64,000 nucleotides of DNA from a phage: the sequence record PZ386974.1; one strand, written 5' to 3'. The notes under the pieces were generated by a model. The model saw only the letters and a list, made by a program, of their open reading frames with translations, was not told the DNA's origin and made no database searches. Of this stretch, positions 50,044 through 60,102 are shown in pieces (the stretch's first letter is position 1; each line of letters starts with the position of its first letter). The position numbers and the translations under genes are program-made.

Positions 50044-50209
50044 TTTGTTTTCCTCTGTGGTAGATGGTGCTAATCTTAACATATCTATCGAGGATGTAAA
50101 CTGTTTTATGAAAATATTTTTGATTTGAGAGGGGCACAAGGAGATAATGAAGTGAAGATTCCAATGGATTATATTAGAAATGAGATAAAGAAGACCAGGC
50201 GGCACCTGG

Positions 50210-50533
50210 TCAATCTTCTATGATATCAGAGTCATATCCTAATGAAATCAAGGACTTTTTAAACTCTGCAATATTCTTTTGTTTCTTATCATTTAAAAAT
50301 ATGACAGGATAACGAATATTAAGTGAAGTGAATCCTGCACGTTTAGCAAGAGATACGATTAAAGGACGGTCATATTCAATCTTACCATTATTAGTGAGGA
50401 CTTTATAAAATGTATAAGGAGCATTGAGCTCCTTTAAAAGTTTTGTAACAGTATAACATCCTGGACAACGTCCTACTTCTTCAGGGATGCCATAGATTTC
50501 AATCTTGTTCTTTAAGTTCGAGTTTTGTTCCAC
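50210..50533 (-). CDS. nrdH: NrdH-like glutaredoxin (107 aa)
   Basis: CPGC redox motif; position between nrdG and 55; start set to GTG at 50533 after AAGGAA SD (track extension is hydrophobic low-complexity). Confidence 0.5.
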   Translation of the reverse strand: MEQNSNLKNKIEIYGIPEEVGRCPGCYTVTKLLKELNAPYTFYKVLTNNGKIEYDRPLIVSLAKRAGFTSLNIRYPVIFLNDKKQKNIAEFKKSLISLGYDSDIIED

Positions 50534-50817
50534 GAGAAATAATTCCTTGGTAAGCCCAATAAGGAGGATTAACAGAATCCTCGCCAGAGTTTTCTTCAGG
50601 AAAATAAACCTGGATAACAAATCCAGACTCATCAAAGGTAAAATAAACCGTAGGCAGTTCACCTAACAATTCGACACGAGCATTAATTTCTTCTAGATCT
50701 CGTTCACGTCCAGCCCAAAAAACTAGGATTTAGACTACATTCATAGAAATAATAGTCATTACCGAACATATCAAAACCTTTCCAACTCTCTACCACATAC
50801 CGCTCAAAACTAATCAT
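50499..50817 (-). pseudogene. ORF interrupted by a +1 frame change at a T6 run (programmed frameshift, pseudogene or sequencing error)
   Basis: ATG at 50817 opens 37 codons then TGA at 50706-50704; +1 frame is open from 50729 to stop at 50501-50499; frames overlap at minus-strand TTTTTT (plus 50717-50722). Confidence 0.3.
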
Positions 50818-50819
50818 AA

Positions 50820-51035
50820 TTAAGCCTTTTTATCAAGAACAGAATTCAGTTTATTAGTAATTTTGTCCAAACGTTCATTGAATTCGCTGGAGGATAAACC
50901 CTTTTCTGGAGAAATTAAACTAATCACGAAAAATACACCAGTAAAAGGAATAAGAAAAATAGCTCCAACTGCCATAAACAAAAAGAACGTTACAGTTGTA
51001 AGAAAATCAGCTAAACCTTTACGAAATTTATACAT
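50820..51035 (-). CDS. small membrane protein (71 aa)
   Basis: ATG; hydrophobic segments. Confidence 0.45.
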   Translation of the reverse strand: MYKFRKGLADFLTTVTFFLFMAVGAIFLIPFTGVFFVISLISPEKGLSSSEFNERLDKITNKLNSVLDKKA

Positions 51036-51145: not shown

Positions 51146-51616
51146 TTAATCATGTTTCCACACCCCATCGGTATTTGACCAAAGTCGCTGATTATCTGAT
51201 CCTCGCCACAGCTTTTTAGTCGGAAGATTTTTCTCATACTTCCCATCAATAATAACATCAACATATTTAAGCATTTCTAGTTGTTTAATATCTTCAAACT
51301 TATATCCTGTCCACAACCAAATGCTTTTATTGGGATAAAGATTTTTTACTGTTTGAACAATGCGATGAATAACATCTCGGTTATCAGGATAGAGAGGGTC
51401 TCCTCCGGTTATAGTTAATCCTTCTATATAATCATTATTCAAACATTCAATTAATTGTTCTAGTGTCTCTCCAGTGAATGGAACACCGTTTCTAGCATTC
51501 CATGTTGATTTATTATAACACCCTTCGCATTTATGCAAACAACCTGTGACGAAAAGAACGACCCTGCAACCAGGGCCATTCACAAAATCGCAAGGATAAA
51601 ATCTATCATAATTCAT
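51146..51616 (-). CDS. nrdG: anaerobic ribonucleotide reductase activating protein (radical SAM)
   Basis: 156 aa; N-terminal CDFVNGPGCRVVLFVTGCLHKCEGC; ATGA-coupled to nrdD. Confidence 0.85.
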   Translation of the reverse strand: MNYDRFYPCDFVNGPGCRVVLFVTGCLHKCEGCYNKSTWNARNGVPFTGETLEQLIECLNNDYIEGLTITGGDPLYPDNRDVIHRIVQTVKNLYPNKSIWLWTGYKFEDIKQLEMLKYVDVIIDGKYEKNLPTKKLWRGSDNQRLWSNTDGVWKHD

Positions 51617-53430
51617 TGGTGTTTAACCCTATGCATGATTTCTTTATTTTTGCCTAGATTAAATCCGCGTTCGTTCGGGTTTCCAAGATAACCACACGTT
51701 CTTCTTATTGTGTTCATCTTTTTAGGATCAGTTTCTCCACAAATAGAACAAACAAATCCGTTTTCAGTAGGAGTCATTTCATGGGTACTTCCACACGTAA
51801 AACATTTATCTACTGGCATATTAACACCAAAATAATCTAAATGTTGTGCAGCATAATCCCAGACAGCCTCAAGTCCCTTTAAATTGTTTTTCATATCTGG
51901 AAGTTCAACATAAGAAATGTGACCACCTGACGCAATGAAATGATATGGCGCTTCACGAGAAATCTTTTCAAACGGAGTAATATTTTCTTCTACTGAAACA
52001 TGGAAACTATTAGTGTACCAGCCTTTATCAGTGACATCCTTTACACTTCCATATTTTTCCGTGTCGAGTTTACAGAAACGATAACACAAGTTTTCAGCAG
52101 GAGTAGAATACAAGCTAAAAGCAAAACCGGTTCTTTCGGTCCACTGTTTAAGATGAGTATTCATTTTAGTTAAAATTTCTTGTCCAATATCACGACCGAC
52201 AAGAATATTCAATTCGTGAATACCAATGTATCCTAGGGACACTGAACTTCTACCGTTTTTAAATAACTCAATTATATCGTCATCAGGTTTAAGACGGACC
52301 CCGAATGCACCTTCTTGGTAAAGAATAGGAGCAACAGTCGCTTTAACCCCTTTTAAGGAACTAATTCTACACATCAAAGCTTCAAAACACAAATCCATTC
52401 GTTCATCGAACAATTCGGCAAATTTCTGTTCATTGAACTGTGTTCCAATATAAGAATCTAATGCGATACGAGGAAGATTCAGTGTTACAACACCGAGATT
52501 ATTACGTCCATCAAGAATTTCATTACCGGTCGAATCTTTCCATACGCTCAAGAAACTACGGCAACCCATTGGAGAAACAGGAACTGAAGAACCGGTAATA
52601 GCTTTATTATTCTTAACCGAAATAATATCAGGATACATTCTTTTGCTTGCGCACTCTAGAGCAAGCTGCTTAATATCATAGTTCGGATCATCTTTATAAA
52701 GATTAACACCTTCTTCAACAAACATAACAAGCTTAGGGAAAATAGGAGTTATTCCATCACGACCAAGACCTTTAATGCGGTTTTTAAGAATTGCCTTCTG
52801 AATCATTCGTTCAGTCCAATCGGTTCCCGTACCAAATGTAATTGTTACAAAAGGCGTTTGTCCGTTTGAACTAAAGAGAGTATTTACTTCATATTCATAA
52901 GCTTGGAATGCGTCATAGACATCTTTTTCTGTTTTGGATTGAGCATAATTCAACGCATCAGCGATTTGCCATTTTTCTGCATCTTCAATATGTTTTGCAT
53001 AGGTGCGTTTAACATAAGGAGAAAGTACTTTATCTACATTAGCAAAAGTCGTTCCGCCATACTGGTGAGAAGCAACTTGTGCGGTAATTTGTGCCATAAT
53101 TGCAGTAGCAACGCCAATAGATTTAGGCGTTTCAATTTGAGCATTGCCTAATTTAAATCCATTCTCAAGCATCCCATTTAAATCGACTAAACAGCAATTA
53201 GTAAATGGAAGAGCAGGAGAATAATCAATATCATGCATGTGAATGATTCCGCTTTCATGCGCATTCATAATAAAAGACGGGACCATATTTTTGGCAATGT
53301 GCTTAGACACAATACCAGCCATAAGGTCCCGTTGAGTTGGAAAAACACGAGAATCTTTATTAGCATTCTCGTTTAAAAGGTCTTTATTAGTTTTATGAAT
53401 TAATCCTTCAATTTCTTTTTCAATTTTCAT
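51613..53430 (-). CDS. nrdD: anaerobic ribonucleoside-triphosphate reductase, intact
   Basis: 605 aa; C-terminal zinc ribbon and glycyl-radical region (RTCGYLGNP); single uninterrupted ORF. Confidence 0.9.
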   Translation of the reverse strand: MKIEKEIEGLIHKTNKDLLNENANKDSRVFPTQRDLMAGIVSKHIAKNMVPSFIMNAHESGIIHMHDIDYSPALPFTNCCLVDLNGMLENGFKLGNAQIETPKSIGVATAIMAQITAQVASHQYGGTTFANVDKVLSPYVKRTYAKHIEDAEKWQIADALNYAQSKTEKDVYDAFQAYEYEVNTLFSSNGQTPFVTITFGTGTDWTERMIQKAILKNRIKGLGRDGITPIFPKLVMFVEEGVNLYKDDPNYDIKQLALECASKRMYPDIISVKNNKAITGSSVPVSPMGCRSFLSVWKDSTGNEILDGRNNLGVVTLNLPRIALDSYIGTQFNEQKFAELFDERMDLCFEALMCRISSLKGVKATVAPILYQEGAFGVRLKPDDDIIELFKNGRSSVSLGYIGIHELNILVGRDIGQEILTKMNTHLKQWTERTGFAFSLYSTPAENLCYRFCKLDTEKYGSVKDVTDKGWYTNSFHVSVEENITPFEKISREAPYHFIASGGHISYVELPDMKNNLKGLEAVWDYAAQHLDYFGVNMPVDKCFTCGSTHEMTPTENGFVCSICGETDPKKMNTIRRTCGYLGNPNERGFNLGKNKEIMHRVKHQ

Positions 53431-56009: not shown

Positions 56010-56956
56010 TATAACACCTCAATGGCATTTCGTAAACCATCCGCTTTCGCGTTCAGAGCTTTTAACGATTTAGTCTGTTCTTTAATCTGGGCTTCGACTT
56101 CTTTAAGACGAGATTTGAGATATTCACGTTCTTCGCTCAAGTTGTCAACTTTTTCTACTTTAGGTTCTTTAATAGTCTTAAGTTTATACTCGTTAGGGTT
56201 CTTCAACTTAATTTGAATGCGAGAACTGAATAACATCGAACCGTTATCTTCGGTTTCGTCATACATTTCTACTACGTCCATGATTCTTAACATCATGCGA
56301 AGTTTATAAGACAGCGAACGAACGGTTTTATTGTGCTTCTTAATTTCTTCAGCTTTCATGGTGCCGAGATTACGTGAGTAGTAATAAGGAACCTGGATAT
56401 CAATTGACAATGATGCGTTACCATTACCTGTTGGTTTGAATACTGCAGTAACCCAATCTTTAACATGAACTTTATTTGTACGATCATCGCCACCAGTGAA
56501 TAATTTACGAGAATGTTTAAAAAGCATATTCACTTGGTTATTGAATTCACAAGCAAATTTATCAGCAAATTTAGTTTCAGGAATGGTAGATAACCAATCA
56601 GCCAAATGAGTCTTTTTAACATCATTAACAATAGTGAATTCAACCAAATCGGTTTTAGATGTCACAGATTTAATAAAGCTCGGCTTCATAAAGTTTTTAA
56701 TGTTATCGCGAGCTACAGTAGAAGATAATAAACGAGAACGTTTGAACCATTGAAGCAGCGTCCCTAATGAATGAGAATATGCATTTTGAGTATCTTTACA
56801 GATATGATTTTCTTGGCCTGTGTATGTAAGAAAATCACGAAGAATACTATAAACCACACCTTTATGTGGAACATCAGTCCAAGCACCAGTAGCACGTTGA
56901 GCGTGAGCGTTAGCGATAAGACCGGCAAAGTATTCAATGTAATGTGAACGTGTCAT
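56009..56956 (-). CDS. hypothetical protein with C-terminal coiled coil (315 aa)
   Basis: ATG; own promoter cassette. Confidence 0.5.
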   Translation of the reverse strand: MTRSHYIEYFAGLIANAHAQRATGAWTDVPHKGVVYSILRDFLTYTGQENHICKDTQNAYSHSLGTLLQWFKRSRLLSSTVARDNIKNFMKPSFIKSVTSKTDLVEFTIVNDVKKTHLADWLSTIPETKFADKFACEFNNQVNMLFKHSRKLFTGGDDRTNKVHVKDWVTAVFKPTGNGNASLSIDIQVPYYYSRNLGTMKAEEIKKHNKTVRSLSYKLRMMLRIMDVVEMYDETEDNGSMLFSSRIQIKLKNPNEYKLKTIKEPKVEKVDNLSEEREYLKSRLKEVEAQIKEQTKSLKALNAKADGLRNAIEVL

Positions 56957-59965: not shown

Positions 59966-60102
59966 AACATATCCTCTTTGATTTGTACATCATTATTTTA
60001 AATATTTCTATGCCCTCAGTAGGTTCCTAGTGTCCTTCTTTGAGGTAAGCCATATGATTATTCATCTTTATGGCTTTTGTTACCTCAGAACTTCCTATAA
60101 GC

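Follow-up and report, generated by a model that had tools for sequence, protein, structure and literature searches.

A disrupted RB69 ORF082c-like gene upstream of nrdH in a Mosigvirus-type phage genome, with a probable private one-base homopolymer insertion

Frameshifting at short runs and the RB69 ORF082c-like gene family

Mononucleotide runs undergo Streisinger-type replication slippage, for which the runs in the T4 rII and lysozyme genes are the classic hot spots. During translation in bacteria, UUU_Ynn is an especially +1-prone sequence even without a stop codon, as at argI and YopN-TyeA (PMC5009743), and the programmed +1 frameshift of prfB, the gene of RF2, combines CUU_UGA_C with an upstream Shine-Dalgarno stimulator (described in part in PMC5009743). 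Programmed transcriptional slippage is described for Thermus dnaX (a run of nine A residues), Shigella mxiE and IS elements, and the criterion of Baranov et al. for such sites is that the length of the run is conserved among homologues (PMC1088944).

The RB69 ORF082c-like family (phrog_2749) occupies the slot between gene 55.8 and nrdH in six T4-like genera, and the copies examined elsewhere than in the present genome consist of one ORF of about 97-105 aa; members include moskry_99 (QHR76537.1), the JS98 protein (YP_001595202.1) and cluster P0001. In moskry, VIPECOMC06 and AlbertHofmann the DNA that corresponds to the locus described here is one 318-nt CDS that encodes 105 aa and overlaps nrdH by 35 nt; in JS09 the same frame is annotated from an internal ATG and labelled as similar to RB69ORF082c, and the copy of JS98 (Dhakavirus) is annotated as 'RB69 orf082c-like'. 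A tblastn search with the intact 105-aa moskry protein matched 527 phage records, 526 of which cover 80% or more of the query at a single place; 60 rows sampled evenly down the ranking are all single-piece and single-frame, with identities from 100% down to 38%. By tblastn and annotation the family is present in Mosigvirus, Tequatrovirus, Dhakavirus (JS98), Gaprivervirus (VR26) and Kanagawavirus (CIP9), and single ORFs are annotated in records of Mosigvirus, Dhakavirus, Kanagawavirus and Gaprivervirus; the copy in Mosugukvirus (PM2) was found by fold search and annotation. Gene calls on 15 further contigs (NCBI, ENA metagenomes, Logan assemblies) likewise yield a single ORF, of 89-105 aa, in this slot. 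The slot between 55.8 and nrdH is kept in JS98, CIP9, VR26 and PM2, where nrdD and nrdG are not adjacent. T4 does not have the gene, and its 55.8 is followed directly by nrdH.

The protein has no match in Pfam, its PHROG category is 'unknown function', a PDB fold search with its predicted structure returned no match (best E-value about 2), and its fold matches in BFVD are uncharacterised proteins of T4-like phages. A HMMER scan of 1.84 billion representatives (50% identity) found nine proteins, eight of them 88-100 aa long, and a literature search found the name ORF082c in no paper. The fixed position between 55.8 and nrdH is the sole hint of function. AlphaFold predicts one small alpha/beta domain for the intact protein (pLDDT 76, pTM 0.67), in which residues 9-25 form strands, 38-51 a helix and 56-94 further strands. 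Where dN/dS could be computed, it is 0.08-0.3, and synonymous changes dominate on both sides of the position at which the present copy is broken; for the N-terminal part the value (0.09) comes from the comparison with JS09, dS being zero or saturated in the others. The residues at this position, LNPSFWAG, are the most conserved stretch among the closer homologues.

Three members of the family or of its slot have unusual structures. In Pectobacterium phage PM2, the 199-aa 'glutaredoxin' PM2_077 (KF835987.1, 41901-42500; L021:11902-12501, minus strand) is an in-frame fusion of an ORF082c-like protein to NrdH, in which …WSYQGIISSGKKYP is joined to KIEIYGIPETVSRCAGC…. A tblastn search with PM2_077 gives a single piece only in PM2 and two pieces in all 28 other phages listed. 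If the fusion is genuine, it is a hint of a functional link with NrdH; alternatively, the record may contain a frameshift error. As a singleton among the phages listed, PM2_077 is a weak functional clue. The Logan contig ERR10879660_16751 (L016:1501-1806; P0002, four member sequences) has an extra G near the 3' end of the gene, CAAGGGAAT versus CAAGGAAT, which changes the C-terminus of the 101-aa product to …YQGNYFSWNKTQT. This is another indel in a short run of the gene, independent of the one in the window. In Shigella phage CT01 (OK018184.1, L020:412-675; Tequatrovirus), only the last 26 ORF082c-like residues match and the rest of the nrdG-nrdH slot is filled by a different 87-aa ORF, which suggests that the content of the slot was replaced by recombination.

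Anatomy and neighbourhood of the disrupted copy

The window, which is the whole stretch of 64,000 nucleotides analysed (sequence record PZ386974.1), is part of the genome of a Mosigvirus (RB69-type, T4-like) phage; over 25 kb it shares 97% identity with phages moskry, mobillu and AlbertHofmann, the closest in the phage collection by blastn. Exact look-ups of its NrdD and NrdG proteins returned nothing, and E. coli genomes gave no match. On its minus strand, nrdD (51613-53430; an uninterrupted 605 aa) and nrdG (51146-51616) precede the gene for a 71-aa small membrane protein like that of gene 55.8 (50820..51035; phrog_1930; PF26812 Phage_T4_Y04H), the stop codon of which lies 2 nt ahead of the ATG of the broken gene (50499..50817). 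Next comes nrdH (50210..50533), which encodes a glutaredoxin-like protein of 107 aa; its first 35 nt lie, in a different frame, within the 3' end of the broken gene. As in T4 and the annotated relatives, nrdH begins with a GTG (50533) and not with the out-of-frame ATG at about 50494. The sequence AAGGA lies 10 nt upstream of the GTG, and nrdH may be able to initiate independently. A terminator-like hairpin (50193..50211, minus strand) stands directly past the nrdH stop codon, and a terminator is annotated at the matching position in several relatives.

The nrdH frame is also open for 43 codons upstream of its GTG, inside the ORF082c-like gene, as part of a 150-aa ORF (50210-50662, minus strand, from GTG 50662). 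This is probably coincidental, because the length of the overlap ranges from 20 to 35 nt among relatives, and in JS98 the two genes are separated by a spacer of 31 nt; recoding at the overlap of ORF082c and nrdH was rejected on the same grounds. Elsewhere the window is without three small moskry genes, soc.1, soc.2 and moskry_57 (blastn breaks at about 21830 and 26150), a case of accessory presence and absence. In several close relatives (L023, L025 and L027, positions 1-1923) nrdD is called shorter, at 443 aa, and just upstream of it is a gene for a SegE-like GIY-YIG endonuclease; at its nrdD locus T4 has mobC and the I-TevII intron.

The ATG at 50817-50815 on the minus strand opens 37 sense codons (MISFERYVVESWKGFDMFGNDYYFYECSLNPSFLGWT) that are followed by TGA at 50706-50704. 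This 5' piece (50704..50817) comprises 33 native codons, counted from the ATG, and four that are out of frame (LGWT). The other piece (50499..50729) is in the +1 frame, which is open for 76 codons (50729-50502), covers native residues 34-105 and ends at TGA 50501-50499, 35 nt inside nrdH. The two frames join at a run of six T residues (the T6 run; 50717..50722, read as A6 on the plus strand), where the zero frame is AGU UUU UUG GGC UGG ACG UGA and orthologues have AGU UUU UGG. The coordinates of both frames and of the run agree in full with those in the initial annotation, which had put the product of a slip between the frames at about 106 aa; such a product would be 105 aa. The ORF measures 319 nt here versus 318 nt (105 codons and a stop) in intact relatives, and removal of one T from the run yields a 105-aa protein that is 100% identical to the copy of phage ECO26.1 3-1.

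Of the 100 positions of the PHROGs profile phrog_2749, 1-34 are matched by the 37-aa piece (E 1.2e-15) and 33-99 by the 76-codon piece (E 8.5e-28). Since both pieces match contiguous parts of one profile, they are not a chance juxtaposition of ORFs. The window copy matches the whole profile and occupies the slot between 55.8 and nrdH, and its ORF is not intact. Judged from the profile matches, the DNA alignment and the translation after deletion of one T, the locus holds a single gene and not two; it is a disrupted member of the RB69 ORF082c-like family. A pair of genuine small genes, one for the 37-aa peptide and one for a C-terminal protein from an internal start, would have TTG 50669 as a possible start for the latter, with an ORF of 56 aa in the second frame. 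The two pieces, however, belong to one profile and one predicted domain, no Shine-Dalgarno sequence precedes TTG 50669, the 37-aa product is not on record elsewhere, and the comparison of orthologues, in which two separate genes would have counted against the slip according to the initial annotation, shows a single ORF and no split orthologue. Two genes are thereby effectively refuted, and a restart at TTG 50669 of the one disrupted gene would yield a 56-aa fragment that has no recognisable ribosome-binding site.

Origin and consequences of the extra T

In the DNA alignment, the single difference that matters between the window and moskry, JS09, VIPECOMC06 and ECO26.1 3-1 is that these have TTTTT where the window has TTTTTT. 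The run of five (T5 run) belongs to the codons AGT-TTT-TGG (Ser32-Phe33-Trp34). Many close relatives, Tequatrovirus phages included, spell Ser-Phe-Trp in this way; three Logan contigs have AGC TTT TGG, with four T residues; others, including phages with a 55.8 protein identical to that of the window, have AGC TTC TGG or TCG TTC TGG and no run; and the distant genera have GAA/GAT TTC TTT at the site. Both the T5 and the AGC_UUC_UGG spelling are found among phages that have the same 55.8 protein. A T6 run is present at none of the 24 loci compared, the runs of the homologues being 5, 4 or 2 nt long. A 40-mer with the T6 run is present in none of 50,697 phage records, 218 of which contain the 39-mer with the T5 run. 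This search needed an exact word of 28 nt and a T6 allele with diverged flanks could escape it, against which the tblastn sample and the compared loci argue. The 21-mer with the T6 run is found in no IMG/VR sequence (the T5 20-mer is found in four), in no metagenome contig and in no bacterial genome contig, and the 37-aa product is absent from an index of 153 billion genes. Copies spelled AGT-TTT-TGG always have exactly five T residues (218 phage records and 15 of the 24 loci). No other length of the run was seen among these copies, which speaks against a phase-variable contingency locus. The window allele differs from its orthologues by a one-base change in a run, reversal of which restores the full ORF, and against the nearest relative the gene shows one synonymous change and the indel, with no secondary decay. 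From these comparisons the extra T is read, with a probability of about 0.9, as a private insertion that turned a T5 into a T6 run and is not programmed, mutation and sequencing error being taken together. An inactivating frameshift and a homopolymer error had been named as alternatives in the initial annotation, and the T5 run and single ORF of the close relatives support them.

Whether the sixth T belongs to the phage or to its assembly divides this reading in two. If it is a miscall in the consensus, the phage truly has a T5 run and an intact 105-aa gene. A length change of +1 in a mononucleotide run is a classic class of error, the T6 run is a singleton across all collections searched, the gene is otherwise universally intact, and once the T is removed the protein matches that of a relative in full, with no other damage left. 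Lack of secondary decay fits a lone miscall and a very recent mutation alike. Against an error, the rest of the window is in good order. In a tblastn comparison of 115 moskry CDSs with the syntenic stretch, 109 are in one piece at 93% coverage or more; the other six are two cut by the ends of the window, three that are absent (soc.1, soc.2 and moskry_57) and the gene at issue, the only one split over two frames, even though the window contains 276 homopolymers of at least 5 nt (222 runs of 5 nt, 53 of 6 nt and one of 7 nt). The signature of pervasive homopolymer error was looked for, and what was found is one frame-broken gene in 115 and almost no private indels. All other indels relative to moskry that are not multiples of three are intergenic or compensated within a few bases, and each remaining indel of the window either recurs in other genomes, is compensated in frame or falls between genes. 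When 5.2 kb were aligned with ten independent loci, no indel state but the extra T was private to the window; across 33 kb compared with five relatives, no other private indel lies uncompensated within a gene. Two other private indels were seen, one at 56876-56885, where losses of one and two nucleotides seven bases apart give a net change of -3 in frame in a CDS homologous to moskry_111, and one at 59996, where an intergenic run has one T fewer (four versus five). A noisy consensus from long reads, 454 or Ion Torrent should have given several breaks of this kind, and Illumina consensus errors at 6-mers are rare. That the assembly does not look noisy at homopolymers tips the balance modestly towards a real mutation. 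Purifying selection on the gene in more than 500 genomes makes a viable null allele less likely a priori; the absence of the gene from T4 means that it is dispensable in principle. On balance, a real, recent null allele private to this strain and produced by replication slippage is slightly preferred, at about even odds, and a sequencing or assembly error is held to be a little short of that. The presence of the T6 run in the DNA of the phage, and not only in the assembly, is likewise an evenly balanced proposition. Assuming a mutation, the identity of the corrected translation to that of ECO26.1 and the lack of any other lesion indicate that the insertion is recent.

For such a mutation, replication slippage would have added one T to the T5 run of AGT-TTT-TGG in a dispensable accessory gene, and translation would proceed through the 33 native codons, continue out of frame as LGWT and stop at the UGA at 50706-50704. 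Ribosomes would then end 171 nt ahead of the nrdH GTG, versus 32 nt inside nrdH when the gene is intact, and with this early termination any translational coupling to nrdH would be lost. Relative to the AlphaFold model, the 37-aa peptide keeps only the first three strands and lacks the helix and the C-terminal strands, for which reason the allele should be effectively null and the peptide is almost certainly non-functional. The locus is best annotated as one disrupted RB69 ORF082c-like copy (frameshifted; possible sequencing error), not as two ORFs or a recoding site. If the T6 run is real, a Mosigvirus can remain viable after loss of this widely conserved accessory gene beside nrdH, and the phage would be a natural knockout for the function of the gene and for the role, if any, of the overlap in NrdH expression. 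Beyond annotation the significance is little.

Recoding at the run and comparison with described sites

Recoding would require that the T6 run is real and that one protein is made from both frames, either by a +1 slip of tRNA-Phe on UUU_U (from AGU_UUU_UUG to UGG) or by transcriptional slippage that omits one U, as a selected device or as low-level incidental rescue of the kind termed a 'pseudo-pseudogene'. The +1 slip on UUU-U had been put forward in the initial annotation, and its geometry holds: re-pairing of UUU in the +1 frame gives Phe-Trp and a product identical to the orthologue, with the predicted junction …NPSFWAGR… in place of the truncated C-terminus …NPSFLGWT, and UUU_U is an intrinsically +1-prone tetranucleotide (PMC5009743). 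The programmed device is what the comparison with orthologues, a check proposed in the initial annotation, does not bear out, the ORF being continuous in every orthologue examined. Neither the break nor the run is conserved, since orthologues have a T5 run, four T residues or no run and need no shift, and the T6 run is found nowhere else in the collections searched. In the candidate cassette of the window, AAUCCUAGUUUUUUGGGCUGG, the A-site codon is apparently not a slow one: UUU is followed in the zero frame by UUG (Leu), and a stop is reached only four codons downstream. There is no stimulatory element either: the 20 nt upstream (GAAUGUAGUCUAAAUCCUAG) contain no Shine-Dalgarno-like GGAGG or AGGA, the fold of the surrounding 161 nt is not significantly stable (z = -1.5, equalled by 20 of 200 shuffles), and no Rfam element scores above chance. 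A programmed +1 frameshift was rejected for these reasons, and recoding as a whole is regarded as very improbable.

Incidental leakiness is a separate matter. If the T6 run is real, rescue at a low level is plausible because UUU_U is +1-prone and re-pairing gives the native Phe-Trp. It is possible, if unlikely, that the run is real and the gene leaky in this way, with +1 slippage on UUU_U supplying a small share of wild-type protein, to which loss of one U in transcription could add a smaller share; expression of the gene would then be strongly reduced. Any such rescue would be leakiness at the level of error, and nothing suggests selection for it. The intact T5 allele, AGU_UUU_UGG, also contains the +1-prone UUU_U, and AGC_UUC_UGG does not.

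The window site resembles the described UUU_Y sites, error frameshifting in E. coli argI and the YopN-TyeA fusion of Yersinia, in that UUU_U is present and a +1 shift would give the native protein; it differs in that the argI and YopN-TyeA sites lie in normal genes and the YopN-TyeA product is conserved and functional (PMC5009743), whereas here a shift is needed in one sequence only and synonymous changes erase the site in orthologues. With prfB it shares the +1 direction and re-pairing of the P-site tRNA on a U-rich codon, but its A site holds no stop codon, a Shine-Dalgarno-like stimulator is absent, the site is not conserved and there is no autoregulatory logic. With sites of transcriptional slippage it shares a homopolymeric A:T run at which two overlapping frames join, but the run of 6 nt is far below the approximately 9 A/T of such sites and its length is not conserved among homologues, contrary to the criterion of Baranov et al. 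(PMC1088944), and programmed transcriptional slippage was rejected accordingly. Compared with the RB69 ORF082c-like family itself, the window ORF is interrupted by an extra T where the other copies examined are one ORF, and it has the same slot and sequence; its corrected product shares 100% identity with the ECO26.1 protein and 96-99% with the copies of other Mosigvirus and Tequatrovirus phages. As an event, the insertion resembles a Streisinger-type frameshift in a T4-type phage gene, with a +1 change in a short A:T run, an out-of-frame tail, an early stop and restoration of the gene by restoration of the run; a sequencing miscall here would look identical. It is an ordinary, already understood type of event in a known but uncharacterised gene family.
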